A stretch of DNA of 64,000 bases from an uncultured Clostridia bacterium (GTDB lineage: Bacteria; Bacillota; Clostridia; TANB77; CAG-508), in assembly GCA_947623945.1 (NCBI GenBank), contig CANQHU010000001.1:102585-166584 (forward strand), given 5' to 3'. The notes under the pieces are model-generated. The model saw only the letters and a program-made list of their open reading frames with translations. It made no database searches and was not told the DNA's origin. The translations under genes were made by a program, and so were the position numbers. Positions 14,493 through 54,413 of this stretch are shown piece after piece (position 1 is the stretch's first letter; the number at the start of each line of letters is the position of its first letter).

Positions 14493-14503
14493 GGAGGTAG
14501 AAT

Positions 14504-15463: not shown

Positions 15464-15477
15464 TGGAGGGAAAACCC

Positions 15478-18465: not shown

Positions 18466-18509
18466 GTAATTCAACCTGTCCGTTCTTTCTCAGAAGGGAG
18501 AAAAAGAAT

Positions 18510-29292: not shown

Positions 29293-32028
29293 GTGCATCG
29301 TTTTTGGGATATAGAGTGTTATGACAATTTATTTTGTGTCGGATTCCTAGACGAGAACGAACATCTGGATATGTTCTATTTATGCGATAAAGGGGACGAA
29401 GTGGAGGCTGCCTGCCGAGACAGTGGGTATGATTATACCTGTTATGATTTGGCAGAAAACGGTCATTTACTGGAAGTATTCATGGAAAATCCAATTCCCA
29501 GCAACGGGGAGGCAACGGTGTTGTCAACCTTCCTTGGCGTAGACAATGAAAAGGTCGAGCCAAAGAAAGACTGGTATTTTTCCTACAATGGAGCCAACTA
29601 TGATATCCCGATGATTGATTATGTCATTCATTCGGGCATGACCGCCGGAAAAGTGCGGTTATCGACGGAAACCTTACGACGGCACAGCAATGCGCTGATT
29701 ACACAGAAGCGAACATTTGCTGGACTGTCGAAATATTTACGATATGGAAATCATGTGGATGTTGCCCTGCTTAATGAGACAAAAATTGAGCGGGGCCGTC
29801 CAACAGTCGGTTTAAAGACCTTGGCCGGTATTTTGGGCGGTTCCATCATTGAATCCGAATCCAATAATACCGGGCATTCGGAAAGTATTTATTCGGATAT
29901 CCTGTACAATATCAATGATGTGGCGGAGTTAAAGCATCGCGTGTTTAAGGGTTTTTTGCACACGAAGTTTAAGACTAAAAAGAACTTACTGGAACGGTAT
30001 CCGCATTTGCTGGATAACGGTGTGACGGTCAATTCGACCAGCGCCAAGTTTGTGGAGTATATCATTGCTCCGGAAAATCCAATTGAAGACTTACCAGTGG
30101 TCAATTATGCTTATCCTGCAAAGCACATTGCCGAGCGGTATGGGATGAAACAAGTGAACATTCTGGAAAATACCAAAGACTGGTATTTGAAGAATGTCTA
30201 TCTGCCGATTTCCAAAGTCAACCCGAAAGCGGCAAAAGCACATTTGGCGAAGTTTATGTCCATTTGTGGCTATTATGGCTATTATGAGGGAAAGAACTGG
30301 AATGAGTCAACAAGACACATTTTCAAGTATCAAACCCCCGGTCACAGTACCAAGGAGCGTCGGATTGCAGATAGAACCTACGGCGTTATTTTGCCATTTA
30401 TCCGAAAAGACGGCGTAGAATCACCTTCGTATGTTCGATTTTCCGTCGGCGGCATTCACGGGGCGGAAATCAATGCAGCACAGCTTGCACAGGATAGAGA
30501 AACTATCAGACGGTTAAAGGAACAGTATGGATATATCTCCAAAATTCCAAAAGGCACGGTGTCCAACGGGTTATTACAGCTTATCATCAAGCAGTCGAGA
30601 ACCCCTTATGAGGATTATCCCGTGCGTTGTTCCCATGAAATACCGTATTTCTTTGAACACACAAAAGAGGTTGATGAAATTATTGACCCGGAAGAATTTT
30701 CTCCCTATATGGTGCAGAAAATGAAACACGAAGACGGTCTTGGGGATTATCAGGAAATGGTCATTGAGCGGTACAAGTACACCAGTACCGGCAAGTCTAC
30801 CCACCAAGACTTTATTTCCTATTACCCAATGTTAATGATAATGTTGGGAACCTTTTACGACGGAAAAGGCAAAGACCCATATGCAGAAGTCAAAGACCTT
30901 CGGGTAACCATTAAGGCAAAGCTAAAGGAGCTGCCATTTGGCAGTACAGAATATAACAATGTCAACGACGAGCAGGAGGGATACAAGCTGATATTAAACT
31001 CAGCATCCGGCATCTTGGACGGCAGTCACGATACCAATTTGCGAGCCAACAATAAGGCGATGACCATGCGGATTATCGGACAGCTTTTTACCTTCCGTAT
31101 CGGCATGGCGCTGGCGTTGGAGGGAGCGGTGATTCCGTCTTCCAATACCGACGGTATCTATGCGTGTGGTATTGACCTTGAGAAAAACCGTGTGATTGTA
31201 GACACAGTGCTGAAAGACTTCCACATTGAGATTGAACCGGAAGAACTGTTTTTGGTGTCCAAGGACAGTAATAACCGTATGGAGATAGTAGACGGGAAAG
31301 TGGTTTCTGCCAAAGGCGGAACGATTTCCAGTTGGAAAGGGGCGCAAGTAGATACTTCCCTTGCCCATCCGGCTTTGGTTGATAAGATTTTGACCTTATA
31401 TCTGCCTCGCGCCGATTTGATGAAGCCGGTCAACAAAACGCTCATTCGGGACTGTTTGGAAGAATATCTACAGACGGAAAATCATCGAAAATTTGTGTAT
31501 ATGGCCAGTTGGATATTGCGTTCCACATCCGGTAGTATTTTTGTTGACAGTGCGCATCAGGTACACAAAGGCACCATTCGGGCTTGGCTTTCGGATAATG
31601 GAGTATCTTTAACCAGATACAACACCCGGGCAACCCGGTGTGGTACTACTACAGATGAGTATGCGGCACAGTTGTTCCCGGCCAGTGTGTTGGGAAAGCC
31701 GGAAGTAGTAGAATATTTGTCCAGCTTAAATGCATTGGAAAATACCTTTCCAAAAGCCGTGACCGTGGAACAGTATCAGGCGTTCAAATCGTCAAAACTG
31801 GCGGCAGGGCAGACTTGGAAAGATGTCAATGTATCGGTTCCGGTCATTACGGATACCAAAATTACAAATCTTTCTGATACGGCACGGCTGTTTATTGATA
31901 ACCGTTGTATTGATGAGATGAAAGATGTAGAAATTGAACAGATTTATGAGCATATCTGTATCCAAGAGTATGTGGATTTGATTGCTACTTTTGCGGATAC
32001 TTGGCACAATCCATTGGTGCCGTCATAG
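29293..32028 (+). CDS. family-B DNA polymerase
   Basis: Exo I FWDIECYD, Exo II YNGANYDIPMI, Exo III YNINDVAEL. Pol motif A DFISYYPML, motif B KLILNSASG, motif C SNTDGIY. GTG at 29293 lies 7 nt after AAAGGAAG. Confidence 0.8.
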   Translation: MHRFWDIECYDNLFCVGFLDENEHLDMFYLCDKGDEVEAACRDSGYDYTCYDLAENGHLLEVFMENPIPSNGEATVLSTFLGVDNEKVEPKKDWYFSYNGANYDIPMIDYVIHSGMTAGKVRLSTETLRRHSNALITQKRTFAGLSKYLRYGNHVDVALLNETKIERGRPTVGLKTLAGILGGSIIESESNNTGHSESIYSDILYNINDVAELKHRVFKGFLHTKFKTKKNLLERYPHLLDNGVTVNSTSAKFVEYIIAPENPIEDLPVVNYAYPAKHIAERYGMKQVNILENTKDWYLKNVYLPISKVNPKAAKAHLAKFMSICGYYGYYEGKNWNESTRHIFKYQTPGHSTKERRIADRTYGVILPFIRKDGVESPSYVRFSVGGIHGAEINAAQLAQDRETIRRLKEQYGYISKIPKGTVSNGLLQLIIKQSRTPYEDYPVRCSHEIPYFFEHTKEVDEIIDPEEFSPYMVQKMKHEDGLGDYQEMVIERYKYTSTGKSTHQDFISYYPMLMIMLGTFYDGKGKDPYAEVKDLRVTIKAKLKELPFGSTEYNNVNDEQEGYKLILNSASGILDGSHDTNLRANNKAMTMRIIGQLFTFRIGMALALEGAVIPSSNTDGIYACGIDLEKNRVIVDTVLKDFHIEIEPEELFLVSKDSNNRMEIVDGKVVSAKGGTISSWKGAQVDTSLAHPALVDKILTLYLPRADLMKPVNKTLIRDCLEEYLQTENHRKFVYMASWILRSTSGSIFVDSAHQVHKGTIRAWLSDNGVSLTRYNTRATRCGTTTDEYAAQLFPASVLGKPEVVEYLSSLNALENTFPKAVTVEQYQAFKSSKLAAGQTWKDVNVSVPVITDTKITNLSDTARLFIDNRCIDEMKDVEIEQIYEHICIQEYVDLIATFADTWHNPLVPS

Positions 32029-32039
32029 GAGGAATGTAT

Positions 32040-32873
32040 ATGGGAAAAGCGCCAAAACGAGGACAAAACATTGTTATCAAAACCCAATTTAATATCAACG
32101 GTTCCAGAGGAGCCAATGTAGGCCATTTCATATCCGATTATGTTGCCAGAGGGGCCGCCACCGACCCCTCACTGGCATATCTTCCGCCTACCGACCGTCC
32201 GATAGAACCGGGAGACGGCGTGGCATTTACCTTAAATGCAACTGCCATTTCCAGACAGGAAACGCTTGACCTTGCAGACCGGGTGCAGAGCCTGTTTGAG
32301 CAGGGCAATCGAGCCATTGAACAAATGGTCATTTCCTTTTCCCCGGAATATTTAGTGGAAGAGGGCATTGTGCCGGACAATGTGCCGATTTTGCGTCGGG
32401 GCGATTACCGGTTTAATTATGATGATGTCCGGATTCGGCACGCAGTTTCGACCGGGGTTTCTGCTATGTTGGAAAACGACGGATACTACAATGGAAAAAT
32501 GGTAGCGGCGATTCAGTCGGATACCCTGCACCTTCATGTTCATGCCGTGGTGTATGAGGACGGCAACCAGTTTGTGCGAAAGCATGGAAAAGAAGAACGG
32601 GGAATGTTAAAGGAAAGCTCCTTAAACCGGCTTTCTCATCACATTGACCGATATTTGGAAACCACAAAGGATTTGAGTGTGATTCCCACACAGCGGTTAT
32701 TAACGCCAGAGTGGCTGCCAGAGCGTGGCTCTTCCCATACCATTATCTTGCCGCCATCTACGGATGTATATATTGACACTTATTTGAAATTATTGGAAGA
32801 ACGGGAACGGGAAGAGGCGTTGCGAAAGACGCAAGTCCAACCAGAAATAGAACAAGGAGGTTTGACACTATGA
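32040..32873 (+). CDS. relaxase/mobilisation-nuclease-like HUH protein (putative)
   Basis: SDTLHLHVHAVVYED resembles the MOB-P relaxase histidine-triad motif (H.D.D..H.H..). N-terminal ISDYVARG is a candidate Tyr box. AGGAGG lies 7 nt before the ATG at 32040. Confidence 0.45.
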   Translation: MGKAPKRGQNIVIKTQFNINGSRGANVGHFISDYVARGAATDPSLAYLPPTDRPIEPGDGVAFTLNATAISRQETLDLADRVQSLFEQGNRAIEQMVISFSPEYLVEEGIVPDNVPILRRGDYRFNYDDVRIRHAVSTGVSAMLENDGYYNGKMVAAIQSDTLHLHVHAVVYEDGNQFVRKHGKEERGMLKESSLNRLSHHIDRYLETTKDLSVIPTQRLLTPEWLPERGSSHTIILPPSTDVYIDTYLKLLEEREREEALRKTQVQPEIEQGGLTL

Positions 32874-33496: not shown

Positions 33497-34168
33497 ATGA
33501 ATAGTTTAGGAAAAGTTTTAAACGGTTTTGAATGGGATTATGAAGGGACTATCCAGATTATGAGAGGTACCGGCTATCAAGGAAAGGGTGTCAGCAGAAC
33601 ATTGTTCCTGTCACCGAAATTGGAGGACATTCCGGAGCAGTTATTTGCTCTTAAGGTATCGCAATCAACCAACCCAGCGAAAGCAGGGAAGTTGACATTC
33701 CGGTACTTCTCATTCCGGTTTGACAAGGATGCGAAGTTTGAGAACTTAGCTCCTTCAGAAGTAACAATGGAGACTCCATTGGCCGATGTAAAGAATCTTG
33801 TAGTCAGCAAAATGGGCAATATTCCGAACGCAGAGATTTCTATCAATGTGACACTGCACGGGAAGTTTACGAACATCACTTGTGCAGACGGCGTATTTTC
33901 TATTTATGATGAAGAGAAGTTTAAGAGTCCCGACCCGACAAAGTCTGGCAATGCTCCTTACTATGTGAAGTCCGATAGCATTATTCGGGTTCATTTAAAG
34001 GGTGCAGAGTCTCAGGGCAATGAGTATATTCAGACAACCTTGAGTACCACATCGGTATCAGACGACATTTTCGCAAAGTCTCAGGCAGGTAAGGTTTGGG
34101 GAGAAGACGACGGAGATAGCGCAGGCGCTGCTCCAGTCGACAGTACACCCGCAACACCTGTTTGGTAA
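33497..34168 (+). CDS. hypothetical protein, monocistronic, acidic C-terminal tail ending in W
   Basis: 223 aa between a consensus promoter and a strong terminator. Tail is ..WGEDDGDSAGAAPVDSTPATPVW. Confidence 0.65.
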   Translation: MNSLGKVLNGFEWDYEGTIQIMRGTGYQGKGVSRTLFLSPKLEDIPEQLFALKVSQSTNPAKAGKLTFRYFSFRFDKDAKFENLAPSEVTMETPLADVKNLVVSKMGNIPNAEISINVTLHGKFTNITCADGVFSIYDEEKFKSPDPTKSGNAPYYVKSDSIIRVHLKGAESQGNEYIQTTLSTTSVSDDIFAKSQAGKVWGEDDGDSAGAAPVDSTPATPVW

Positions 34169-34248
34169 TGTGAAAACCTCAATGTGACAGTTCGACCACG
34201 AGGCTAGGTTCGGGAGACTTTCGTATCAAATGTTGCATTTTACGATAA

Positions 34249-34282
34249 CCGTACAGTCTAATGGGCTGTACGGTTTTTTTTT
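34249..34282 (+). terminator. intrinsic terminator
   Basis: CCGTACAG-N9-CTGTACGG followed by T9. Confidence 0.8.
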
Positions 34283-34315
34283 GTACATAAAATAGAAAGG
34301 AGATTACTTGCGAGC

Positions 34316-35584
34316 GTGATAGAAGTATATTGTGATGAATCGGTCTGTATTCAAAGAGACGAAAACCAGAACGACCGATATTATATTCAGGCAAATGTGG
34401 AACAGCGTTATATCAAAAACTATGATTTAAAACGGCATTCGACACCCGTGGAAGACGCAAGATTACAAAAGACCTTATATCTGTTGTCTTTAGTTCATCG
34501 GTATATGCGTCCGGAGGAATTATATTTTCAGGAAAAAGCCAATATGGTGCGTCTTATGGCCGGATTATCCGATGACTATCTTATTCCCTCTGCCGACTCT
34601 GTTATCTGGCGGTCTATGGTACTTCGGAGAGTAGCCTTGGAATTACGGAAAACCTATGGAGACCGAGATGATAAGATAGCGCCTTTGTCCGACGCCATCG
34701 AACACATTGTTCGAGTATTTTCTTTGACGCCGTTGGATTTGGTAAAGACCGAGTCCCTTGTGGATACCGAGCAGGTGAAAGCCGCACTCACAAAATGGGA
34801 GCTATCCCGTTATGCCAAGCACATTGAGAAAGTGATTTCCTTTAAGAAACAGTCAGGGCGCCGGTATGAGAAACGGACAGGAATGTTGTCCATTATGGTA
34901 CCAGAATATCTGGTACAATCCGAAGCGTGGCAGGAAATGGTAAACAACGGAGAGGGATTTACCACGCATCCTGTATATGTATATTGCTATCGGGGCATAC
35001 AGAATGGACGCATGGTTTTTGACTTAAACCGAATGGTACAGGACATTGAACTATTGACGGTACAGATGACATCGAATCAATTTCGTCCAAAGAAGAATTA
35101 TCCCCATTCATCTCCTTCAACCAACGGATATCCTTTATTTAATTTTAACGATGCGTTGGAGGCTTTGGATACACATATGTCCCAGCTTATATGGCGTCGG
35201 AATATGGACGAGACGGTTTCGTTCGCCATTCACAATCGGTGTGAACCGTGGCGACTGTTGCCACATCGGGCTATGGCTGTCTATTTTCTGGTGAAAGTGT
35301 CAGACGCCCGGATTCAGAAGCTGCATAAGAAAAACTTAATCACTTTGACACTTTTTCAGGATATTTGTGATTTTGAAGAGCAGGCGGGCTACAATGCCTT
35401 GTGGATACGAAATACCGTAGAACGAATGCGGCCCTATGTGCCGTTAGCGATGACGGCGCTCATCAGTGAATGGAACCAAAAGTATGGGAACCACCGGGAG
35501 GAATTTCTCTTTGTGTATCCCAATTTTCGGACATCCTTTGACGAGGAGACCGGTATCATTCAACTGGTCAACTATGCAGATTAA
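34316..35584 (+). CDS. unknown-family protein, tandem paralog 1 (most divergent)
   Basis: GTG start after GAAAGGAG. Shares its N-terminal (..YCDE..), central and C-terminal (..IIQLVNYAD) layout with the 37182, 38757 and 40234 products. Confidence 0.6.
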   Translation: MIEVYCDESVCIQRDENQNDRYYIQANVEQRYIKNYDLKRHSTPVEDARLQKTLYLLSLVHRYMRPEELYFQEKANMVRLMAGLSDDYLIPSADSVIWRSMVLRRVALELRKTYGDRDDKIAPLSDAIEHIVRVFSLTPLDLVKTESLVDTEQVKAALTKWELSRYAKHIEKVISFKKQSGRRYEKRTGMLSIMVPEYLVQSEAWQEMVNNGEGFTTHPVYVYCYRGIQNGRMVFDLNRMVQDIELLTVQMTSNQFRPKKNYPHSSPSTNGYPLFNFNDALEALDTHMSQLIWRRNMDETVSFAIHNRCEPWRLLPHRAMAVYFLVKVSDARIQKLHKKNLITLTLFQDICDFEEQAGYNALWIRNTVERMRPYVPLAMTALISEWNQKYGNHREEFLFVYPNFRTSFDEETGIIQLVNYAD

Positions 35585-35596
35585 CAGGAGGGACTT

Positions 35597-36292
35597 ATGG
35601 AGACAGCCAATTTTTCATATAAGAAGACACGAGACGGGATTACCATTATGGAATATATCGGTTCATCGTCTGTCGTGTTTATCCCAAACGAATTGGACGG
35701 CATTCCGGTAACCCGCATCGGACGGTTTGCCTTTTATGAGTGTGCTTGTACAGAAATTACCGTACCGGAGGGTGTGACGGACATTGGCTGCGGAGCCTTT
35801 ATGAGCAGCCCATCTTTGACACGGGTTTCGTTGCCAAAGACTTTGCGCACCATACAGGAAGAAGCATTTCACTATTGTGCCGACTTGCAGGAAATAGAAA
35901 TTCCTGATGCTGTCAATCACATTGGGGATAAGGCGTTTCGCTGTTGTCATTCTCTGCGGAATGTCACTATGCCAAGTCAAATGCAGTTGTTGGGAAAAGA
36001 AGTCTTCGCGCAATGTGAAGAACTGGAAGAAATTAACCTTTCCCATGGGCTGTTGGAAGTACCCGACCAGACTTTTGCCTATGATGTATCCTTGCGGCGT
36101 GTACAGTTGCCAAGTACGCTTCGTCGCATTGGAGATAAGGCATTTCAGTCCTGTCAGGCATTGCGTCAGATTATCATTCCGACGGCCGTGGCCTTGATTG
36201 GCAGGCAGGCGTTTGAGGATTGTTTTCGATTGTGTGATGTCATCATTCCAAACGGTACATCTGTCATGGATGATGCATTTTCAAAAAGATAG
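35597..36292 (+). CDS. BspA-type leucine-rich repeat (LRR_5) protein
   Basis: Repeated IP.gVt.IG..AF..C..L..v.lP units (at least 7). No signal peptide. Confidence 0.8.
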   Translation: METANFSYKKTRDGITIMEYIGSSSVVFIPNELDGIPVTRIGRFAFYECACTEITVPEGVTDIGCGAFMSSPSLTRVSLPKTLRTIQEEAFHYCADLQEIEIPDAVNHIGDKAFRCCHSLRNVTMPSQMQLLGKEVFAQCEELEEINLSHGLLEVPDQTFAYDVSLRRVQLPSTLRRIGDKAFQSCQALRQIIIPTAVALIGRQAFEDCFRLCDVIIPNGTSVMDDAFSKR

Positions 36293-36302
36293 GAGGAATG
36301 AC

Positions 36303-37049
36303 ATGAACACAACAAAATTTGCCTATCAGGAAGTAGAACAAGGGATTGAAATCACCAAATATACAGGCAAGGACCACATTGTTCGGATTCCACAAAGAAT
36401 AGACGGAATACCTGTTGTGCGGATTGGTCACCATGCTTTTCAAGGGTGTTCTTGCACCAGTGTTATGATACCGGAGGGTGTAACCAGCATTGGGTACGGC
36501 GCTTTTATGGAAAGCGATGCCTTGGTACAGGTTTTCCTGCCAAGCACATTAAAGACTATCGGGGCATTGGCATTTGGCTTTTGTTCCGAATTGCGGAGCA
36601 TAGGAATTCCAAATAGTGTGACAAGTATTGGAAATAAGGCATTTACCTATTGTCGCGCGTTGGAAAAGGTCACTATGCCAAAGAAAATGGAATATATCGG
36701 ACAGGATATTTTTTCATCCTGTCAAACATTACGGACGATAACTTTACCGGACGGGATTACGGAAGTTCCGGATATGGCATTTGCAGATTGCGAACAGTTG
36801 CAGGTCGTGCGTCTGCCAGACACCATTTTGCGGATTGGGTGTTATGCCTTTCGGTTTTGTGAGTCCTTATATCAAATCATACTTCCCGCTGCTGTTATAA
36901 GCATTGGCAGTGGGGCATTTTACAACTGTATCAAATTAAATAGTGTGGTTATCCCAAAAGGAGCCACGGTAGCGGACAACGCATTTTCAAGAATAGGAGG
37001 AAACAAGAATGAGAGTAGCAACAAACATTCAGTGGGATATAGAGGATGA
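36303..37049 (+). CDS. BspA-type leucine-rich repeat (LRR_5) protein, paralog of 35597
   Basis: Same N-terminus (F.Y.e...GI.I..Y.G) and repeat units. AGGAGG RBS before the ATG at 36303. Confidence 0.8.
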   Translation: MNTTKFAYQEVEQGIEITKYTGKDHIVRIPQRIDGIPVVRIGHHAFQGCSCTSVMIPEGVTSIGYGAFMESDALVQVFLPSTLKTIGALAFGFCSELRSIGIPNSVTSIGNKAFTYCRALEKVTMPKKMEYIGQDIFSSCQTLRTITLPDGITEVPDMAFADCEQLQVVRLPDTILRIGCYAFRFCESLYQIILPAAVISIGSGAFYNCIKLNSVVIPKGATVADNAFSRIGGNKNESSNKHSVGYRG

Positions 37050-37182
37050 CGATGAAAGCATTGATTTACCGACAGAAATTGTATTGCCGGCTGATATCAG
37101 TGATGAGAATGCAGGCGATTATCTTTCTGATAAAGTCGGATTTTGTCACTTTGGTTTCTCGATTGAAAGGAGAGAAGAGTAA
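37009..37182 (+). CDS. small acidic protein (57 aa) absent from the supplied ORF track
   Basis: AGGAGG 8 nt upstream. Sequence is MRVATNIQWDIEDDDESIDLPTEIVLPADISDENAGDYLSDKVGFCHFGFSIERREE. Its TAATG overlaps the next gene's start. Confidence 0.6.
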   Translation: MRVATNIQWDIEDDDESIDLPTEIVLPADISDENAGDYLSDKVGFCHFGFSIERREE

Positions 37183-38735
37183 TGGACGAAATGCGATATC
37201 GGGATGACGACATTGTGATTACATGGAGAGAGTCCGGCAGAGTGTATATTGTTTGGCGTCGAGATGCGGAGACAGCGAACCCCGGCATTCGATTGATGGA
37301 AGTCGATGAGACAGAAAAGAAAGTCCTTACCTATCTGGCGAACGCATATCGGTATATCGGGCCATTTCATTATGTCCGGATTTCGGAAAAGCTGTTTCAG
37401 TCTTATTGTAAGGATACGCCCTTATCGACTTATCAACACAAAAAGACAACGCCATGGAAATCGGTATTACGAAAACGGGTGCGTCTGGAAATGGAACACT
37501 TCTATGGAGTAACCTTGCAAGATAATGTTGTCAATCTGCATTTGCCGGAATGTGTGAATTATGTCATAGAACACATGGGCTTTTCCATTACGGATTTGGA
37601 GAGGAAAAAGCCTTTGGTCAACAACGAAGAGGCCGCGAATGTTATCAAAGAGTGGGGCATTCGCCGATATGGAACGCGGATTATGGATAATCTTCATTTG
37701 CTTACCAATTCCAATGCGTCCTATCGAAAACGGGACGGGGCATATTTGATACCGGTTCCGGATTGGATGGAATACACGGATTGGAGGGGCATCTTAAAAG
37801 ACACTTCGGAAGATATCACAAAAGACCCGTTGTTTGCCACCTTTGACGGATTTGTCGGGACTGCCAACCATCGGAAAATGAAGTTTGATTTTTCCAAACT
37901 GTATCACAATCCAGAGTTACGAAATCTTGTTATGAAATGGAATGGATTTCGAGAACATGAATTTGATACCTATCCGATAAGAGTCTATGAGCCGCAGGCA
38001 CAGCAAGACGATGATATTTTTGGCAGCCGTACGGCTTTGGATAACCTCGGTGGCCGTTCTGCTACCATATGTACGATGTCACAGGAAGAGTTTTTCCATT
38101 TACTTCCGTTAAATCCATTGGGACTTTGGAATCGGTGTTATCCGCCAACGGAAGAGTTAATTTACAACCCGGATACCGGGTTATGGGCCCATCCGAACAA
38201 AGCAGCCGCCTTTCGGTTTGCACATGGGTATGTGTATCACTATAAAGGCATCAGCAGGATGGCAACAATATTAACCTTTTTGATTCGGGTTTGTCAGGAT
38301 AAATTTGAAATCACGCCGGAAGAAACTATCTTGCGGGTGAGTTTCTTTGAACGGTTTTATTCTGATTTTTTTGTGGAAAGTGAAGAAGCATTACGATTTG
38401 CACAAAAGACCGTGGATGCAATGGTAGCCAATGCGCCGAGAAGAGCCCAGCAAACGGTTATCAATTTAGAGAATAACCTCGAAGTGGCGGAATGGAATTT
38501 CTTTGAGTATCCAATGGAAACCAAATGGGAAAACGCCTTACATTTGGAACCAAGTCAACGAATTTCCTTAAAGCAGGCGATGAACCTTTTAAAACAGTAT
38601 GCCATAGAGGCGTTTTTATTGTTAGCAACACAACAAAACTTTGACTGGCAGCAAGAACGACTCATTCCGGTTCGGAATCAATTTGAGGTGTCGGTGGATT
38701 CTAATACCGGAGAATTTGTTATCCGAAATTTTTGA
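37182..38735 (+). CDS. unknown-family protein, tandem paralog 2
   Basis: 517 aa. Conserved blocks YRKRDGAYLIPVPDW, LNPLGLWNRC, FEITPEETILRVSFFERFYSDFF and C-terminus GEFVIRNF. Confidence 0.7.
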   Translation: MDEMRYRDDDIVITWRESGRVYIVWRRDAETANPGIRLMEVDETEKKVLTYLANAYRYIGPFHYVRISEKLFQSYCKDTPLSTYQHKKTTPWKSVLRKRVRLEMEHFYGVTLQDNVVNLHLPECVNYVIEHMGFSITDLERKKPLVNNEEAANVIKEWGIRRYGTRIMDNLHLLTNSNASYRKRDGAYLIPVPDWMEYTDWRGILKDTSEDITKDPLFATFDGFVGTANHRKMKFDFSKLYHNPELRNLVMKWNGFREHEFDTYPIRVYEPQAQQDDDIFGSRTALDNLGGRSATICTMSQEEFFHLLPLNPLGLWNRCYPPTEELIYNPDTGLWAHPNKAAAFRFAHGYVYHYKGISRMATILTFLIRVCQDKFEITPEETILRVSFFERFYSDFFVESEEALRFAQKTVDAMVANAPRRAQQTVINLENNLEVAEWNFFEYPMETKWENALHLEPSQRISLKQAMNLLKQYAIEAFLLLATQQNFDWQQERLIPVRNQFEVSVDSNTGEFVIRNF

Positions 38736-38756
38736 TGAAAGAAAGGAGGGGACGAT

Positions 38757-40217
38757 ATGGCTCGATTAGACATTCCTTGTTATTATGATGATGAGGTCGA
38801 AATCTTTTATCCACAGGGCCGTTTGAATGGTGTCCTTTGCATTGAAACGAGAGAAAATAAAGAACCCTTTTCACGGAATATTCAGATAAACAATTCACAG
38901 GAGGCCACAGTCTTCTCTTATCTGGCAAATATTCATCGGTATGGCAAGTATTATTACCTGCCATTACACCAGTTTTATTCTTTATGTGATGCATTACCAG
39001 TATCCCATTCGGCAAATTGGAAAGTGTGGAAATCCTTTTTGAAAACCCGGGTATGGCTGGAGTTGAACCATTTTTATCCGGAAGTATTCTGGCCTCGAAA
39101 ATGGGGAAAGGTAACACGCGATGTAGTAAAAGTAGTGATTGACGCACTGGGACTTACCGTAGCCAATTTGGAGCAACGAACGCCATTGGTACAGAATGCG
39201 GAGGCGGAACGGGCGTTGAAAGAGTGGGCCGTTTCCCGATACATCGGACGGATGTATGAAAACTTCCACTTGCGAAAACGGTCGAATACATCGTATCGAA
39301 AGAAAGACGGAATGTATTTGATTTCCGTTCCCAGCTATTTTACCGATATTGAGTGGCAAACTTTGGTGAAACATTCGGAAACGGATTTTACAAAAGCGTA
39401 TTTGTTTACTGCATTTGACGGGTTTGAAACGACCAGCGCCAGCCTAAAAATGCGAATTGACATGAAACGCTTGTATCCAAATAAAGAGATGCGAGACGAA
39501 ATTATGGAAACCAACGGGTATCAGGTCGATTCTTTTTGGGAGGAAGACGGCGTGTATCAGTTTTACTTTGAAAAGGACCAATTTTTTCGTATTTGTCCTA
39601 TTAATGCCCTTGGTCTTTGGAATCAGTGTCAAAATGCAGAACCTTATACGGAAGAGATAGGAACATCCGGTCATCCGTTATCCAATGCGGTAGCGGCATA
39701 TCGGTTTGATAATGGATATATTCGATTATATCAAAAGGTATCCAAACAAGCGGCAGCCGTATTATTTTTAATCGGCGTGAGTAAAGATGAATTTGAAATT
39801 ACGCCGGAACGAACGAGACTGCGCATCAGCTTTTTTGAACGGTTTCATTCTGATTTCTTTATTGCAGAGGAAGAACTGGTAAAACAGGCTGTAGCTTTCT
39901 TAGAGGGAATTCCGGACACAGAGGGCCCGAATACTCATCTTTGGCTAACAGAAAATAAGGAATTTACTTATTATCAAATGGCGCCAAGTGATGCCGATTG
40001 GGCGAAGCCACTATTACGGGATTTGCGCAAACAGATTTCACTGGGGCAGGCTATGGAACGGTTAGCCGACGGAGCTATCACGGCATTTCGTGTGGCCGCC
40101 GTATGGCAGTCACTTTCGATATATGAAGAGGGAAAGCCCTTTGTTCCGATACACAACCACTTCGAGGTCATTACCGACCCGGAAACAGGTTATTTTGTCA
40201 TTGATAATTTTGATTAG
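38757..40217 (+). CDS. unknown-family protein, tandem paralog 3
   Basis: 486 aa. Blocks DIPCYYDDEVEIFYPQG, YRKKDGMYLISVPSY, INALGLWNQC, FEITPERTRLRISFFERFHSDFF and C-terminus GYFVIDNFD. Confidence 0.7.
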   Translation: MARLDIPCYYDDEVEIFYPQGRLNGVLCIETRENKEPFSRNIQINNSQEATVFSYLANIHRYGKYYYLPLHQFYSLCDALPVSHSANWKVWKSFLKTRVWLELNHFYPEVFWPRKWGKVTRDVVKVVIDALGLTVANLEQRTPLVQNAEAERALKEWAVSRYIGRMYENFHLRKRSNTSYRKKDGMYLISVPSYFTDIEWQTLVKHSETDFTKAYLFTAFDGFETTSASLKMRIDMKRLYPNKEMRDEIMETNGYQVDSFWEEDGVYQFYFEKDQFFRICPINALGLWNQCQNAEPYTEEIGTSGHPLSNAVAAYRFDNGYIRLYQKVSKQAAAVLFLIGVSKDEFEITPERTRLRISFFERFHSDFFIAEEELVKQAVAFLEGIPDTEGPNTHLWLTENKEFTYYQMAPSDADWAKPLLRDLRKQISLGQAMERLADGAITAFRVAAVWQSLSIYEEGKPFVPIHNHFEVITDPETGYFVIDNFD

Positions 40218-40233
40218 AGAAAGGAGAACGACT

Positions 40234-41700
40234 ATGAGAGTAGAGGATATTCCCTGTTATTGTGATGATAGGATTGTAATGTATTATCCGCAAGGGAATG
40301 TAGAGGGCCCAATTTTGATAGAACCTCGAGATGAGAATATGGAACCGCCAACCACTTTGTTTGTTCGGGATGAAGATGAGTCCGTGGTCTTTTCTTATTT
40401 ATCAAGGGTATTTCGATATCTCCATCGTGGTGTCGAATGTATCACACCTCAGCAGCGGAAAGCACTTTGTAAGGATTTACCCCTATATCAATATGTGAAG
40501 AAAAAGTCTAGTCCGTGGCGTAATTATTTAAACTTAAGGGTACGAAATGAATTGTATCATTTCTATCATGAGCGGTATGAGGATAGTTTGGTGAAAATGC
40601 ATCAATTTTTGACTGCACAATTTGTGATAGACAAGTTGGGACTTCGCATCGTTGATTTGGTGGAGGACCAACCCTTGGTGGGGAATTTAAACGGTGCAGT
40701 GGCCCTTCGGGAATGGGGCGTTTGCAGATATGCGAAATGCATTAAAGAAGCACTGCATTTACGGAAGCGTTCGTACACTTCCTATCGGAAAACCGACGGA
40801 ATGTATCTGGTCAAAGTGCCGGATTATTTTACAGAAATGGATTGGCGGACTATTATTGCGGATACGCCATATGATTTTACCAAAGAATTACTCTTTTCCA
40901 CATTTGACGGATTTGAGGGGACCGGATTTTATCGAAAGATGCGATTTGATATCCGAAAGTTATATCAAAATCCAATGGTGCGGGACGGCATTATGGATAC
41001 CGGCGCTTATCAAATATCCGGCTATTGGACGGAACAGTTCTTGTGCATATCCCATTATACAAAAAATCAGCTATTTCGGCTGTTGCCTATCAATCTGTTG
41101 GGCTTGTGGAATCGCTGTCATTTAGGGTTTCAAGATATAGATAATCCGGCGTATCGGTTTGATTATGGATATGTACGAATTTGTGAGGGCGTTTCCGACT
41201 TTGCCATGACATTGCTGTTTCTCATCGAGGTTTGTAATGACCAGTTTGAAATTACCCCGGAACAGACAACGCTTCGAGTGACCTTCTTTGAACGGTTTTA
41301 TCGGGATTTACAGGTAAATGATGAAAATTTATGGCAGTATGCCATCAGTGAACTGGCCAAACTTCCGAATGAAAGTACAACAGAACGGTATCTGAATTTG
41401 GAGAACAATCAATTTCAGTCTCATCGGTCTTATCCTACAATTGCCAAAGATTGGGAGACTGCAATTAGTCAAAATCCAAAGAATACCCTGTCGATTGCAT
41501 CGGCTATGAATCAGCTTCAGGCAGAGGCCGCTTCTGCCTTTATTGTTAAGGCAGCGCACCAATCCTTTGGAATTGACGGAGAAAACCCCCGATATTGGGC
41601 TACGGAAGCTCCGATTACAGACTTTGTTCCGATACATGAAAATTTTTCCGTGAAAATAGACACTGCGACCGGACAATTTGTGATAGAAAATTTTGACTGA
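40234..41700 (+). CDS. unknown-family protein, tandem paralog 4
   Basis: ATG at 40234 follows GAAAGGAGA. Blocks DIPCYCDDRIVMYYPQG, YRKTDGMYLVKVPDY, INLLGLWNRC, FEITPEQTTLRVTFFERFYRD and C-terminus GQFVIENFD. Confidence 0.7.
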   Translation: MRVEDIPCYCDDRIVMYYPQGNVEGPILIEPRDENMEPPTTLFVRDEDESVVFSYLSRVFRYLHRGVECITPQQRKALCKDLPLYQYVKKKSSPWRNYLNLRVRNELYHFYHERYEDSLVKMHQFLTAQFVIDKLGLRIVDLVEDQPLVGNLNGAVALREWGVCRYAKCIKEALHLRKRSYTSYRKTDGMYLVKVPDYFTEMDWRTIIADTPYDFTKELLFSTFDGFEGTGFYRKMRFDIRKLYQNPMVRDGIMDTGAYQISGYWTEQFLCISHYTKNQLFRLLPINLLGLWNRCHLGFQDIDNPAYRFDYGYVRICEGVSDFAMTLLFLIEVCNDQFEITPEQTTLRVTFFERFYRDLQVNDENLWQYAISELAKLPNESTTERYLNLENNQFQSHRSYPTIAKDWETAISQNPKNTLSIASAMNQLQAEAASAFIVKAAHQSFGIDGENPRYWATEAPITDFVPIHENFSVKIDTATGQFVIENFD

Positions 41701-41716
41701 AAGGAGTATGATAAAG

Positions 41717-42142
41717 ATGTTACAAAAATTACAAATGCTGCATGATGTTATCAAATCCAATCCATATCGGGAGGACGCCTTTGCATATGATTCATTTAAA
41801 GAGGGCTACTTTCGCACCCTGCAAATGTTGTCCGACTGTTTTTTCGAGTGGTGTAAATCCCATCGGTTAAGTTCCAACCCGATTGGACGGATTTCTCCAA
41901 ATTTTTTCCATGATTTAAACCATTGTATCAGCGTATGCAGACACGCTCAATATGGAACGGCGCGGTACAATCATGCGGAGACAATGATAGAGATATCTCT
42001 GTCACTGATTCATACTTATTTGGACACCGGCAAAGTGGAAAAATATCCGACCAAGATTGGAGATGACATTGTTTGGAATATATGGCAGCAGGAAGAAAAC
42101 GCATATCGAAGGGAGCAGAACAATGGAGCCAAACAAAGTTAA
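41717..42142 (+). CDS. hypothetical protein
   Basis: ATG 10 nt after AAGGAG. 141 aa. Confidence 0.55.
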   Translation: MLQKLQMLHDVIKSNPYREDAFAYDSFKEGYFRTLQMLSDCFFEWCKSHRLSSNPIGRISPNFFHDLNHCISVCRHAQYGTARYNHAETMIEISLSLIHTYLDTGKVEKYPTKIGDDIVWNIWQQEENAYRREQNNGAKQS

Positions 42143-42464
42143 GAAAGAGCTATTGAATGTACTGGAAGATTATCTGGAAGAATATCGGGTGACTTTGCCC
42201 GGACAGGTAGGGACATTGGTGTTATCCAAAGACCGGTATGCCATCGTGGCTAACGCCATTCCCTTGTCCTTATCGGGACATGGTAAATTGTCCAAAGAGA
42301 ATGCGGAAGAGCTGGTGGACAATTGTCTGAAAGAGGTGGCTAAACAGTTAGCCGATATCTCTGATACTTTTCATCGGGAACGCATCACACAGATTTATTG
42401 GCGGAGCGAACTTATGCTTCGCACCCGTTTACACGATACCCTGAAACGACTGCATTTAGAGTAG
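42123..42464 (+). CDS. hypothetical protein
   Basis: ATG follows GAAGGGAG. 113 aa. Overlaps the upstream gene by 20 nt. Confidence 0.5.
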   Translation: MEPNKVKKELLNVLEDYLEEYRVTLPGQVGTLVLSKDRYAIVANAIPLSLSGHGKLSKENAEELVDNCLKEVAKQLADISDTFHRERITQIYWRSELMLRTRLHDTLKRLHLE

Positions 42465-42479
42465 AAAGGAGAAAATGTT

Positions 42480-43415
42480 ATGGCAATGAACAAAAACCCA
42501 GTACGGCAAAAAGCCCTACAGAAACTGTTGAAAGCCTCAACCTGCCCACCGCAGGATATGGCGGTGACCAACCATTGGCTTTCGGATAGGAAAAAGGAAA
42601 CCGGAACCGGCGTCAAGCTATGCTGGGACAAGCGAGGATACTTAATCGGGATGTGTCTTCGGGGCGTCGCATTACCCTCTGTCGTTTCATTGCGGGAATT
42701 TCCCGAATTGCGTTACCTGATATTAGAGGACAACGGCGGAATGGTAAAACTGGATATCACCAAGAATACCAATCTGGAAACACTGGTGATAAAAAGTCCT
42801 CTGTTGACCGAATTAGATGTCTCACAAAATCCGGCCTTATCCGAATTAGAGGTCTGTCACACACATCTCTTTTCGTTAAGCCTTTGTGACAACAGTGCGC
42901 TTACCACACTTGTGTTATACGATACCATGCTAAATGCATTGGATGTATCCGGGCAGCCCAACCTTACCCGGTTAATGACAGACATCTCACCGCTGATGAT
43001 GGTAGCCTTATCGCCATCGTTGAGGGAGGTTTCTCTTGCCGGAACCCTGATAGCCCGATTGATAGTGCCGGAGGGTTCTCATCTGGATTATTTGGATATT
43101 TCTGGAACAAAAACCTTGCAGGCGTTGCAGTTAGATAAAGCCGCAAATATTACCCGGTTACGATTACGACATACCGGCGTACAAAATCTTGCCTTACGGG
43201 GATTGCCCTTACAGGAATTGGATTGTTCCTATTCTCCGGTATCCTATTTGGATATCACGGATTGTAAGAAGTTAATGCTATTAGATGTTACGAATACCAA
43301 GCTGAAGAAACTGGCATTTTCCGGCGTGGAACAGTTGCGGATATTCTATGCGGAGGGAGCCCCGCTTTCCGGCTGCACCCTGCCAGATTCCGTGACCGTG
43401 GTGCGGCCATTATGA
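42480..43415 (+). CDS. leucine-rich repeat protein (internalin-like 20-22 aa LRRs)
   Basis: Repeats such as L.TLVIKSPLLTELDVSQNPALSELEVCHTHLFSLSLCDNSALTTLVLYDTMLNALDVSGQPNLTRL. No signal peptide. Confidence 0.75.
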   Translation: MAMNKNPVRQKALQKLLKASTCPPQDMAVTNHWLSDRKKETGTGVKLCWDKRGYLIGMCLRGVALPSVVSLREFPELRYLILEDNGGMVKLDITKNTNLETLVIKSPLLTELDVSQNPALSELEVCHTHLFSLSLCDNSALTTLVLYDTMLNALDVSGQPNLTRLMTDISPLMMVALSPSLREVSLAGTLIARLIVPEGSHLDYLDISGTKTLQALQLDKAANITRLRLRHTGVQNLALRGLPLQELDCSYSPVSYLDITDCKKLMLLDVTNTKLKKLAFSGVEQLRIFYAEGAPLSGCTLPDSVTVVRPL

Positions 43416-44596
43416 GGCGGTGGAGTGCGGAGGATACCGCATATTTAAAAGAGGCATTGCAGCAGGGAAAAACGATGCCGGATTTGGTAGACCATCTGGG
43501 ACGGACGGATTCAGCGATTCGGAAACGGATTTCGGATTTGGGTTTAGTTTTAAACCATGTAATTCCCGAATGGACGCCATGGGAGGAAGAACGCTTAAAA
43601 GCCTTAGTTGGTTTTGGGCTTTCCATCGGAGACCTTGCGAATACCTTTCGTCGGACCAAAACGGCTATCAATCAAAAATGCAGCACATTACAGGTAACGA
43701 TTTTGCGAAAGGGCCGACGGTGGACCGAAGAAGAGACGGCCTATTTCAAACAGCGGGTAAAAGCGGGAGACGACCTTGCCACCTTAATGCGTACTTTTCA
43801 ACGGACAGAAAATGCAGTGGTGATAAAGTGTCAGCGGCTGGGAATGCAGATTCAGCGGGAAAAGCGGCTCTGGCTTCCGGAAGAACGGGAAGCATTCCAA
43901 GAGGATTGGAAAGGCGGTATCATTTCCGTTCCGTATATGGCGACGAAATATCATCGTTCGCAGGGCGCTTTGCGACGCTATGCCGTGACCTTACATCTGG
44001 GGCCGCGTCCGTATAACGATGCCTTTTTATCGGTTCCGGATATTGTATTAGAATTACAGGTCGCAAAGGATACGGTATACGGCTGGCTGAAACGGGGACT
44101 TCCCTATCAGAAAGGCCATTCCGGAAAGGTATTATACTTAATTGACCAATATGATTTGTTATCCTTTTTGGAGACACATCAGAAAGAATTTAACGCCAGT
44201 AAGTTAAGTCCATGGCTGTTTGAAACGGAACCCGACTGGCTGATACAAAAACGGCAAAAAGACGCTCTCTTTTTCCCAGACCGAAACAAACGGGAATACA
44301 CCAATGAGGAGGATAAGCAGATTATGCTCTGGTTTCAAAAAGGAGAATCCGACGCGGAAATTGCCAAACGAATGCGAAGAACGGAGATAGCGATTGCAAA
44401 TCGGCTAGAGGAGCTATCGTTATCCCGCAAATTATACAATCCTTATGAAATTGAAATTTTACAGAAGAACAGCGCCACTTTGACCATCTATGAACTTGCC
44501 AAGCTGCTGCCGCTTCGGACGCCGCTTGGTATCAAGCGGAAGTTGTATGAATTGGGATTGCCCTGTAAACAGGGGAAAGGAGACCATCATGTTTGA
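43412..44596 (+). CDS. multi-repeat Myb/SANT-like DNA-binding protein with an internal excisionase/MerR-type HTH
   Basis: About 6 repeats of the form (R)RWT.EE.ayl...v..G.....l...f.RT..Ai..k...LG. Also LSVPDIVLELQVAKDTVYGWLKRGLPYQK, an HTH_17-like segment. Confidence 0.6.
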   Translation: MRRWSAEDTAYLKEALQQGKTMPDLVDHLGRTDSAIRKRISDLGLVLNHVIPEWTPWEEERLKALVGFGLSIGDLANTFRRTKTAINQKCSTLQVTILRKGRRWTEEETAYFKQRVKAGDDLATLMRTFQRTENAVVIKCQRLGMQIQREKRLWLPEEREAFQEDWKGGIISVPYMATKYHRSQGALRRYAVTLHLGPRPYNDAFLSVPDIVLELQVAKDTVYGWLKRGLPYQKGHSGKVLYLIDQYDLLSFLETHQKEFNASKLSPWLFETEPDWLIQKRQKDALFFPDRNKREYTNEEDKQIMLWFQKGESDAEIAKRMRRTEIAIANRLEELSLSRKLYNPYEIEILQKNSATLTIYELAKLLPLRTPLGIKRKLYELGLPCKQGKGDHHV

Positions 44597-44936
44597 TTGG
44601 ATATTGGCATATTTGATTGTCGGCGCCGTGGCCGGCACGGTGTTGGAATTACCGCTTATCTGCACGACTTTGACACTACATTTGACGCCAACCACAACGC
44701 CTGATTACATCTTTTTACAGCAGTACAGTCTGTATGAAATGTTGCATAAAAAGACAGCACTTCCTATGCTGATTTTCATGGAGTGCATTTTAACCTTGTT
44801 AGTGTTACCCGCGAATGGAGTGAATTTTGTGACCTTATTATTGATTCGATTGGGCTATTTTCTAAAGCAGAAATGGAACGCTCATAAACAGAAAGGAGAA
44901 AGGGACGAAAATTATGGAAGGAAAGAAAATCAATAA
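44589..44936 (+). CDS. small membrane protein
   Basis: MFDWILAYLIVGAVAGTVLELPLI.. plus two further hydrophobic segments. ATG follows GAAAGGAGA. Confidence 0.55.
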   Translation: MFDWILAYLIVGAVAGTVLELPLICTTLTLHLTPTTTPDYIFLQQYSLYEMLHKKTALPMLIFMECILTLLVLPANGVNFVTLLLIRLGYFLKQKWNAHKQKGERDENYGRKENQ

Positions 44937-45111
44937 AGTTACGGTTAGGTGGCAGGATGGTTATATGGAAGTTTTTGATGCCACTGAGGTTCGATTTGGG
45001 TCTGATTTGCTTTGGTTACGATTAGAAGACGGAAATAACAGGCATATACCGCTTAGAGGCGTGCGTTGGTTTGGAATGTCTATCGAAAGTCATCAAATAA
45101 ACGGATTTTAG
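44914..45111 (+). CDS. hypothetical small protein
   Basis: 65-aa ORF with a weak or distant RBS. Confidence 0.4.
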   Translation: MEGKKINKVTVRWQDGYMEVFDATEVRFGSDLLWLRLEDGNNRHIPLRGVRWFGMSIESHQINGF

Positions 45112-45145
45112 AGTGTGGAAAGTTATAGAGAGGAGACAGATAGAA

Positions 45146-45367
45146 ATGATTACACTGGCTGAAATAAATTCTACTTTTATAGATGACTGTTACAGAAGAT
45201 TTCACGAGGTATATCCGGAGTTTCACCCTAAATTTTTAGGCGGAAGTAAAGACAAATCCTTTGTTGTGGCAGAATGTACCTTCCCGGACGGAATCTATTA
45301 TTTTCGTCTTACTGACCATTCAGTTTCTCATGCTTACAACACCAAGGAACAGGCATTTGATGTGTAG
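45146..45367 (+). CDS. hypothetical small protein
   Basis: ATG follows AGAGGAGA. 73 aa. Confidence 0.5.
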   Translation: MITLAEINSTFIDDCYRRFHEVYPEFHPKFLGGSKDKSFVVAECTFPDGIYYFRLTDHSVSHAYNTKEQAFDV

Positions 45368-45384
45368 GAAAGGGGAGAATATCA

Positions 45385-46059
45385 ATGGAACGAGTGGTTG
45401 AAGTAAATGGAAAACAGTTGGAAAGCTATACTTCTGGGTTTGGTGTCGGAAGTGTGTTACACATTTCGGTGGACAAAGAGACTGGAGAAAAGACCTTGCG
45501 CGTCAATGGCATATTGGAAGAATCCATTGACAGGTATGCCTACCTTCGGGTGCGTGGTCATGTTGGATACATTGATGGTGTGAAAACCACTATGGTCTTT
45601 GGCACAATTGGACAGATTCAGTGTACGAACCTTTACTTGGACGGTTTGGCTGGAAGTCATTTTACTGTTAAACGGACGATTCCGGCAGAGTTTGACATCG
45701 TATATGGAAAGCCCTATGATTTTGCATATGCCTATCGAAACGGATTGCCACCGACTAGTCCTATCATTCATCGGTCGCCGAAAGCCTTAGAAATAGAGGG
45801 CGATTGGAGCGCCATTCTTTGTGACGGGGACATGGATATTTGTTATTTGGTCGTCGAAGGCAATGTCGACACGATTAAAGGTCAAAAGAATGAAGTGTAC
45901 TGTCAAGGTGATGTGCTTCGAGGCAAAGCACAAAAAGTCTTTTGGGAACCAAGGACGGAAATGCAGTTAGAACGAAAACGCACGAAACAGATTGATTATG
46001 CCAAGTTATATCGAAATTTCGTAGCGACTGGAAAAAAGGAGGATAGTTTTATTTTATGA
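45385..46059 (+). CDS. hypothetical protein
   Basis: 224 aa, with an RBS of AAAGGGGAG. Confidence 0.6.
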   Translation: MERVVEVNGKQLESYTSGFGVGSVLHISVDKETGEKTLRVNGILEESIDRYAYLRVRGHVGYIDGVKTTMVFGTIGQIQCTNLYLDGLAGSHFTVKRTIPAEFDIVYGKPYDFAYAYRNGLPPTSPIIHRSPKALEIEGDWSAILCDGDMDICYLVVEGNVDTIKGQKNEVYCQGDVLRGKAQKVFWEPRTEMQLERKRTKQIDYAKLYRNFVATGKKEDSFIL

Positions 46060-46634: not shown

Positions 46635-46650
46635 GAAAGAATAGGAAAGA

Positions 46651-46682
46651 GTTCGATTACTTTTTGTAATCGAACGATTTTC
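46651..46682 (+). terminator. hairpin / weak intrinsic terminator
   Basis: GTTCGATTAC-TTTTT-GTAATCGAAC followed by GATTTTCC. Preceded by the tandem 10-mer ATAGGAAAGA x2. Confidence 0.5.
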
Positions 46683-46683
46683 C

Positions 46684-46712
46684 TTGCATTTTTTACCAGA
46701 CTTCGATATAAT
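46684..46712 (+). promoter_or_regulatory. sigma-70-type promoter
   Basis: TTGCAT, 17-nt spacer, consensus TATAAT. Lies 26 nt upstream of the XRE-family gene. Confidence 0.65.
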
Positions 46713-46737
46713 GGGTATGTGAGGAGTAAAAAAACAG

Positions 46738-46923: not shown

Positions 46924-46936
46924 GGAGTACATATAC

Positions 46937-54357: not shown

Positions 54358-54413
54358 AAGAAAAAACCGGGGGCTGGCGTGACCCAGCCCCCATGGAAAG
54401 GAGAACAGAAAAG

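Follow-up and report, generated by a model that had tools for sequence, protein, structure and literature searches.

What do four diverged copies of one gene do when they stand in tandem inside the replication module of a large mobile element, interleaved with genes for leucine-rich repeat (LRR) proteins? The question is raised by a 64,000-nucleotide stretch of DNA from an uncultured Clostridia bacterium (assembly GCA_947623945.1, contig CANQHU010000001.1, positions 102,585 to 166,584 of the forward strand), which in its whole length is called the window here. A preliminary description, made by a model from the letters alone, had pointed out the four genes (c1 to c4 in the following) as members of an unrecognised family on a mobile element, and had likened their surroundings to diversifying host-interaction or anti-defence loci. 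Based on family and structure searches and on a comparison with related elements, we find that an ancient expansion in tandem produced the four genes, whose protein family is nearly orphan. The array lies within a 12.7-kb, lineage-specific island of 17 genes (~34285-46936), inserted just after a backbone terminator and between two adjacent backbone genes. From its context, the island is tentatively read as a possible counter-defence or host takeover module.

Three Clear Copies and One Divergent Copy

The start positions of the open reading frames (ORFs) of the array coincide with those of independent gene calls on the public contig, and the four genes are indeed same-strand paralogs, with a similarity far beyond chance. 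The copies c2, c3 and c4 are pairwise 35-41% identical across their full length (BLASTP, E 5e-94 to 9e-120), and a profile made from these three copies only recovers c1 at E 1.6e-23 over residues 3-260. The first copy had been described as much more divergent, which is borne out as well: c1 shares the N-terminal ~260 amino acids and, beyond these, only a C-terminal tail that is weakly collinear with the profile of the other copies (E 0.011). Because the middle blocks are missing or degenerate in c1, we distinguish three clear copies and one truncated, divergent copy.

The sequence blocks that had been read by eye as common to the array have to be corrected in part. The blocks 'LGLWN(R/Q)C' and 'FEITPE...FFERF' are intact in c2-c4 only and 'IPCY.DD..YPQG' in c3 and c4 only, while 'YRK.DG.YL..VP' is preserved in c2-c4 and can still be made out clearly in c1 (YEKRTGMLSIMVP). 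Elsewhere c1 carries degenerate versions (EVYCDE, FAIHNRC, GIIQLVNYAD), and the FEITPE block was not found in it.

Conservation is distributed unevenly along the three clear copies. Pairwise identity amounts to 38-45% in the N-domain (residues 1-256 in c4 numbering), 17-31% in a linker segment with indels, 52-57% in a middle block, 26-32% in a helical stretch and 50-61% in the C-terminal hairpin 'TG.FVI.NF(D)'. The C-terminal half is thus a mosaic of conserved blocks with variable stretches rich in indels between them. Between the paralogs, the proportion of nonsynonymous differences (pN) is 0.38-0.42, compared to ~0.73 for synonymous differences (pS), at which synonymous sites are saturated. 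A pN of ~0.4 next to such a pS indicates protein constraint. The same saturation dates the duplications of the array as ancient and makes the ratio of nonsynonymous to synonymous substitution rates (dN/dS) between paralogs uninformative; orthologs are lacking.

The four proteins are acidic to neutral, with isoelectric points (pI) of 5.5-6.9. As had been observed for the proteins of the block, neither c1-c4 nor the three LRR proteins nor the Myb protein encoded nearby have a signal peptide or a convincing membrane segment (maximum of the N-terminal 12-residue Kyte-Doolittle score <=1.2 in all cases), and the c1-c4 proteins are cytoplasmic. The ribosome-binding sites had been called strong and are of the AGGAGG type. 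A spacing of 17-22 nt had been given along with them; the intergenic gaps measure 10-21 nt or are replaced by overlaps.

Family and Fold of the Paralogs

The search for a known family or fold of c1-c4 was negative in Pfam, PHROGs, NCBIfam, PADLOC, PDB sequence profiles and each of three Foldseek runs. As to curated families, membership was understood as a hidden Markov model match at or near the curated threshold. In Pfam-A, PHROGs v4, NCBIfam 20 and PADLOC-DB 2, c2-c4 match no family at E up to 0.1, and c1 matches FANCA_CTD alone, at E 0.022 and below the cut-off of that family. A known fold was understood as a PDB sequence-profile hit, or as a Foldseek match with E <=1e-3 or TM >0.5. The PDB sequence-profile searches with c1-c4 gave nothing meaningful.

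The full-length AlphaFold2 model of c4, built from a four-sequence alignment, has a pLDDT of 60 and is confident for residues 1-255 only, the C-terminal half reaching a pLDDT of 25-55. Residues 1-260 were re-predicted with five sequences, at a pLDDT of 87.9 and a pTM of 0.85. In this model the N-domain consists of a three-stranded sheet, a helical core and a second, four-stranded sheet; its invariant polar residues are Y62, R102, E106, Y166, Y184 and D239 (c4 numbering). Foldseek found no known fold: the best match of the full c4 model, with its low-confidence C-terminal half, has an E-value of 0.39 against PDB and 0.064 against BFVD, and that of the confident N-domain model an E-value of 0.5 against PDB, with TM <=0.3. 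The family shares a conserved alpha/beta N-domain of ~260 amino acids without detectable known fold. An origin by duplication of the flanking backbone genes was likewise considered and rejected, since hhalign gives 0.1% probability against the family alignments of both the 409-aa and the 223-aa protein.

The family, left unrecognised in the preliminary description, remains so in every collection named above, and no profile places it in a known housekeeping function of phages or plasmids. It stands outside all known families and folds tested and is new by exclusion only.

Database isolation is almost complete. In two word-index searches of 5.8 billion clusters, the copies hit nothing but themselves. 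Run exhaustively over the representatives of ~15 billion proteins, HMMER retrieved the four copies and one other protein, P0006 (523 aa; E 2.3e-7, profile positions 38-276), which hhalign relates to the family with 95% probability over 206 columns. Further relatives were found neither in IMG/VR nor in the GTDB species genomes or the JGI metagenomes, tblastn gave no match for the family in GenBank phages and PLSDB plasmids, no exact DNA match was present in the GTDB genomes, and a literature search by accession numbers had no result either. The family is thus sampled so far in two unrelated mobile-element lineages only.

P0006 heads a six-member cluster from metagenome contigs of 28% GC (L002, L023). 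In L023, the longest of these at 16 kb, its gene stands second in a tandem pair of 510 and 519 aa (g510 and g519, 1131-4234), which is followed by genes for a DUF1002 protein, a T2SSE-type ATPase, a Fic protein and an HNH protein. Over their N-terminal 95 residues, the two proteins share 37% identity (E 1e-14), and the C-terminal halves are weakly collinear, with a Smith-Waterman z of ~4 and a score that is reached by 1 of 500 shuffles. Given this context, the sole other occurrence of the family is likewise a tandem duplication in a mobile-element-like setting. P0006, the only detectable homolog of the N-domain, resembles c1-c4 in a similar C-terminal hairpin motif, in its tandem arrangement and in its mobile-element-like contig. 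It differs by an extra N-terminal domain of ~160 amino acids that is shared by the pair, by a C-terminal half without significant similarity and by the lack of LRR genes nearby.

The Array as Part of an Island Between Two Backbone Genes

The surroundings of the array were compared with 15 relatives, four from the protein collection (L006-L009) and eleven from IMG/VR, over stretches of ~10 kb on either side of the polymerase gene, using BLASTP (E 1e-4) and the family profile. The backbone has a conserved order: helicase, HIRAN, ThiF, MBL, UvrD and polymerase genes, a variable stretch, a 223-aa gene and a 409-aa gene, after which it continues with genes of 142, 170 and 156 aa, ligase, PemK and RecD2. 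In all seven relatives that show both genes (L007, L008, L009, L010, L016, L018 and L019), the 409-aa ortholog comes right after the 223-aa ortholog, at a distance of 15-250 bp; in the window, the two genes are 12.77 kb apart. None of the 17 intervening genes has a counterpart in the stretches examined of the 15 relatives. The island accordingly takes a variable accessory position of the kind expected for an anti-defence locus, being absent from 7/7 relatives that share both flanks. Since the block is missing at this position in the relatives examined while the flanking replication genes are conserved, the array is accessory cargo rather than housekeeping.

The terminator that had been noted immediately before the block is real. 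It is not a feature of the array, since hairpins are also found at the equivalent position after the 223-aa gene in the island-less relatives L007, L008, L009 and L019. The terminator is thus a backbone feature, and the island was inserted immediately downstream of it.

The genes of the island resemble the backbone in GC content and in GC content at third codon positions (GC3). The island contains no integrase or transposase gene, and no convincing direct or inverted repeats were found at its junctions. A 27-nt similarity (D10, 74%) links the regions of ribosome-binding site and start of the 61-aa helix-turn-helix (HTH) gene (46719-46745) and the 409-aa gene (46920-46946); it could have been left by the recombination event behind the right junction. 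The 61-aa gene is absent from the junction of the 223-aa and 409-aa genes in relatives. The gene neighbourhood is identical in 8/8 contigs with an exact copy of the 223-aa or c3 protein, and neither copy-number variants nor island-less variants of the same element occur among these eight. Rfam and tRNA scans of the window returned nothing.

A variable neighbour segment lies between the polymerase gene and the 223-aa gene. Within it, a 277-aa protein (32040-32873), for which no counterpart exists in relatives, matches models of MobL/MobP2 relaxases in part (~150 residues).

Other Genes of the Island

The features of the island and its flanks are listed in Table 1.

Table 1. Position and description of the island genes, their flanks and associated hairpins (positions in the window)
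Feature	Position	Strand	Description
Divergent DNA polymerase	29293-32028		phrog_1252
Backbone gene, left edge	33497-34168	+	223 aa; 33-67% identical to orthologs in 12 relatives
Intrinsic terminator	34247-34284	+	13-bp stem (34247-34275), then T9 run; left junction
Paralog c1	34316-35584	+	422 aa, GTG start; N-domain and short divergent C-terminal half
lrrA	35597-36292	+	231 aa, BspA-type LRR_5; PF13306 E 5e-47, 159 bits; also phrog_35892
lrrB	36303-37049	+	248 aa, LRR_5; PF13306 E 7e-70, 233 bits; tandem paralog of lrrA
Acidic ORF	37009-37182	+	57 aa, pI 4.05; translationally coupled to c2
Paralog c2	37182-38735	+	517 aa; P0002
Paralog c3	38757-40217	+	486 aa; P0001
Paralog c4	40234-41700	+	488 aa; copy used for structure models
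Two small ORFs	41717-42464	+	141 and 113 aa; no Pfam, PADLOC, PHROG or NCBIfam match
lrrC	42480-43415	+	311 aa, LRR_4/internalin-like, no signal peptide
Myb/HTH gene	43412-44596	+	394 aa; Myb/SANT-like repeats and HTH_17 (Pfam Myb, HTH_23, HTH_17)
Remaining genes	44589-46634	+	115-aa hydrophobic protein; ORFs of 65, 73 and 224 aa; 192-aa isochorismatase-fold hydrolase
Two-way hairpin	46651-46675	.	Inverted repeat I22; closes 16-gene run
XRE-type HTH gene	46738-46923	+	61 aa; HTH_3 and HTH_31 weak; last island gene
Backbone gene, right edge	46937-48166	+	409 aa; 34-46% identical to orthologs in 7 relatives

The two LRR_5 genes and the acidic ORF that had been placed after the first copy were found again, as were the internalin-type LRR gene and the Myb-repeat gene after the array. 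Both lrrA and lrrB exceed the gathering score of PF13306 (27.7 bits). They are 48% identical with a dS of ~1.7, so that their duplication is younger than those of c2-c4. A role as cell-surface adhesins finds no basis in the two proteins, which with 231-248 aa have no N-terminal hydrophobic segment, no anchor and no large multidomain architecture. Matches to HupY and Gli349 stay within the repeats and fall far short of the cut-off.

The acidic 57-aa ORF overlaps lrrB by 41 nt, and its stop codon overlaps the start of c2 (TAATG). Its product has a single outside match (41% identity, E 9e-6), a hypothetical protein of the Butyrivibrio proteoclasticus megaplasmid pCY360 (L021, NC_014389.1, 87506-87727), which is encoded within a long run of small same-strand ORFs. 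Further downstream, the Myb/HTH protein matches phrog_323, 'transcriptional regulator, D5-like', at E 1.5e-34 and resembles phage-type transcription regulators, and the 192-aa hydrolase belongs to PF00857 (E 1e-15). A toxin domain, which a polymorphic toxin/immunity array would have beside small immunity paralogs in tandem, was not found in the island, whose paralogs measure 420-520 aa.

The Host Element and Its Clade

The location on a mobile element, as initially proposed, can now be specified as a circular, phage-like or plasmid-like genome of ~181.7 kb. The window spans the ends of the public contig NODE_8 (ERZ27249377; L001, L004) of 181,759 bp, and the coordinate offsets of NrdD and c3 lead to a circle of 181,704 bp. 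This length equals the 181,759 bp minus a 55-bp overlap, as well as the 181,781 bp of the NCBI contig minus 77 bp, both being k-mer overlaps of the assembler. Because the offsets match, the genome is complete and circular, or circularly permuted.

Among its genes for replication and nucleotide metabolism are those for NrdD, an SNF2-type helicase, ThiF, UvrD, the divergent DNA polymerase, an NAD ligase and RecD2. The polymerase has more than 160 homolog clusters with 46-70% identity on contigs of 180-320 kb, and is found in eleven IMG/VR loci on contigs of up to 234 kb. In 50,697 GenBank phage records, tblastn found no match to the polymerase or to the RNA polymerase-like protein. The element thus belongs to a large uncultivated clade of 180-320-kb gut elements that share a conserved replication module and are partly listed as viral in IMG/VR. 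In three IMG/VR relatives (L016, L017 and L018), inserts of 0.6-3 kb interrupt the polymerase gene and leave it in two or three pieces; these inserts are probably inteins, introns or homing-endonuclease insertions.

The element mixes traits of jumbo phages and of plasmids. An RNA polymerase beta-like protein of 1158 aa with a faint Rpb2_6 match is encoded on the minus strand (61277-64000). Just outside the window lie an actin-like ALP_N/RHH pair, a penicillin-binding protein, a DHFR and a Y1 transposase; the ALP_N and RHH proteins (L003, 4031-9987) form a plasmid-type segregation pair. A PemK/MazF-like toxin domain protein (54288-54965), located between ligase and RecD2, is kept in relatives. 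The backbone also encodes a conserved MBL-fold hydrolase (24833-25633), whose orthologs in L006, L007 and L009 match Pfam Anti-Pycsar_Apyc1; judged by this similarity, it may be a cyclic-nucleotide-degrading counter-defence gene.

Surface-related cargo is present in the window and in relatives. At 3369-5098, the window encodes a SipW-like signal peptidase (TIGR02228 and SipW models) and then a protein whose signal peptide is of the SipW-dependent type (TIGR04088). Proteins of 399 aa and of 1529 aa come next, the latter with a Listeria-Bacteroides repeat, and this locus looks like a TasA-like fibre or surface operon. Downstream of the polymerase, L006 carries a sortase/Cna_B/SpaA pilin cluster together with a DFP protein (12789-22653), and L007 a gene for a small acid-soluble spore protein (13652-13816). 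The pilin-type and spore-protein cargo of these two relatives indicates spore-forming Bacillota as hosts.

Discussion

In this study, we propose that the island may serve as a counter-defence or host takeover module, a reading that is drawn from its context and that we prefer, but put forward as tentative. The island would be an operon-like accessory module that serves in conflicts, be it with the host or with competing mobile elements. The N-domain shared by the paralogs would provide a common activity or scaffold, and their variable segments, together with the co-encoded LRR proteins that lack signal peptides, would confer target specificity, each paralog being directed at another target. 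Several features suggest such a conflict or host-interaction module. Three LRR proteins are encoded without signal peptides, and the acidic 57-aa protein, coupled to c2, has its sole homolog on a Butyrivibrio megaplasmid. Genes of the Myb/HTH (phrog_323) and XRE type stand at the end of the operon, the island encodes an isochorismatase-fold hydrolase, and the backbone has an MBL-fold gene with Apyc1-family orthologs in relatives. The paralogs themselves are mosaics of conserved and variable segments, and the relatives outside the element form a tandem pair beside genes for Fic, HNH and T2SSE-type ATPase proteins.

Against this reading weigh a number of observations. No homology to known anti-defence, defence or effector proteins was found in Pfam, PHROGs or PADLOC, and most known anti-defence proteins are smaller than 420-520 aa. 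The invariant residues of the N-domain contain no recognisable catalytic motif, and no His is invariant. The junction between the 223-aa and 409-aa genes holds no other cargo in any of the seven relatives; being empty in 7/7, it is not a recurrently used hotspot and looks like the site of a single insertion. No clear promoter was found for the island, of which the first gene starts 40 nt from the terminator. The eight contigs are free of sequence variation and thus give no direct sign of ongoing diversification. Moreover, a capsid or terminase gene was not seen in the 84 kb inspected of the ~182-kb element, for which the label 'jumbo phage / phage-plasmid' is provisional.

A more specific proposal is that the paralogs have a previously unseen fold and make up a hitherto undescribed class of effectors that large phage-plasmid-like elements deploy inside the cell, with an N-terminal catalytic or scaffold domain, variable recognition segments and cytoplasmic LRR adaptors, each paralog neutralising or sensing another target; we consider this rather unlikely. 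If a conflict effector were indeed at hand, a new fold and an LRR-assisted architecture would be added to the proteins of counter-defence and defence. The locus is in any case a cleanly bounded example of the gain of an island inside a conserved replication module, gives a confident model of a domain without known analogue and draws attention to a clade of phage-plasmid-like elements of gut Bacillota that is widespread and unstudied. Orphan paralog families and arrays are frequent in large phage genomes. As the newness is one by exclusion and such arrays are frequent, the present value of the locus is that of a lead, not of a discovery.

Among the alternatives, defence or exclusion cargo fares best, even if it seems unlikely to us. 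The island would then protect the resident element and its host from other phages or plasmids; sensing would fall to the LRR proteins, as it does to LRR domains in other immune systems, and the paralogs would be the effectors. This explanation is a serious one in view of the plasmid-like traits of the element: long-term residence is suggested by the ALP_N and RHH proteins, the PemK-like toxin, the Xer/integrase genes in relatives and surface cargo such as SipW/TasA-like and sortase-pilin genes, and the island lies between conserved core genes. Nevertheless, PADLOC gave only faint HTH matches (Myb protein) among the island proteins, typical effector domains (NTPase, nuclease, SIR2, TIR or others) are not encoded, and the empty junction in 7/7 relatives is not that of a recurrent hotspot.

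It is less probable that the paralogs are element-specific proteins for DNA transactions or regulation, i.e., for accessory replication, segregation or transcription, and have diverged as DNA-binding proteins to different sites. Their position inside the replication module, near the MobL/MobP2-like relaxase fragment and the Myb/HTH regulator, fits this explanation, and Foldseek gave faint winged-helix-like sub-matches to the DNA-binding domains of HSF and Skn7. These matches (all E >2, TM <=0.3) are not significant, however, and the proteins are acidic to neutral. Furthermore, the family is absent in relatives that share the replication genes and is thus not needed for replication in this clade.

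Slightly less probable still are virion-packaged, injected internal proteins. Among the internal proteins of phiKZ-like jumbo phages, such as those of the inner body or the internal head, tandem paralogs of 400-500 aa are known; like several jumbo phages, the element encodes an RNA polymerase beta-like subunit, and signal peptides are absent as expected. Yet there is no match to Pfam phiKZ_IP (PF12699) or to a structural PHROG, the genes stand in the replication module (polymerase-ligase interval) instead of the morphogenesis module, and they are absent from the examined stretches of 15/15 relatives, while virion components are normally conserved. Finally, that the genes are functionless or decaying duplicates, or selfish filler DNA called as genes, agrees with the lack of homologs and known domains and with the truncated, degenerate C-terminal half of c1, but is hardly credible for four uninterrupted, tightly spaced ORFs of 422-517 aa with strong ribosome-binding sites, which conserve their amino acids despite saturated synonymous sites, encode a confidently foldable N-domain and have a distant relative that was kept in an unrelated 28%-GC element.

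Comparison With Known Systems

The counter-defence reading invites a comparison with the anti-defence clusters of mobile elements, i.e., the acr-aca loci of phages and the anti-defence arrays in the leading region of plasmids (PMC11541004). Similar to these, the island consists of packed same-strand accessory genes that vary between related elements, has HTH genes at its end and includes a small acidic protein. It differs in that its members have no homology to known ones, its central proteins of 420-520 aa are not small, and its location is inside a replication module instead of a leading region or early-injected end.

The P2/P4-type defence hotspots of temperate phages and satellites, as they are generally known, share with the island that cargo is carried between conserved core genes of a resident element, here downstream of a backbone terminator. 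In the case of the island, however, no PADLOC model is matched, and the junction that is empty in seven relatives has the look of a single insertion. The internal proteins of phiKZ-like phages are comparable as tandem, diverged paralogs of 400-500 aa and of unknown fold in a very large phage-like genome, whereas the array shows no sequence match to them, does not belong to a structural module and is not conserved in relatives.

With regard to the LRR proteins, lrrA and lrrB are clear members of the BspA-type LRR_5 family of gut Bacillota, Bacteroidota and phages, which is also present in multiple copies in human-gut phage contigs. They are short in comparison and do not have the signal peptide, anchor or Big domain, and are therefore probably intracellular or virion-bound rather than surface adhesins. 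By analogy, the closest counterpart of the locus as a whole would be an accessory cluster by which a mobile element counters defence or provides it.

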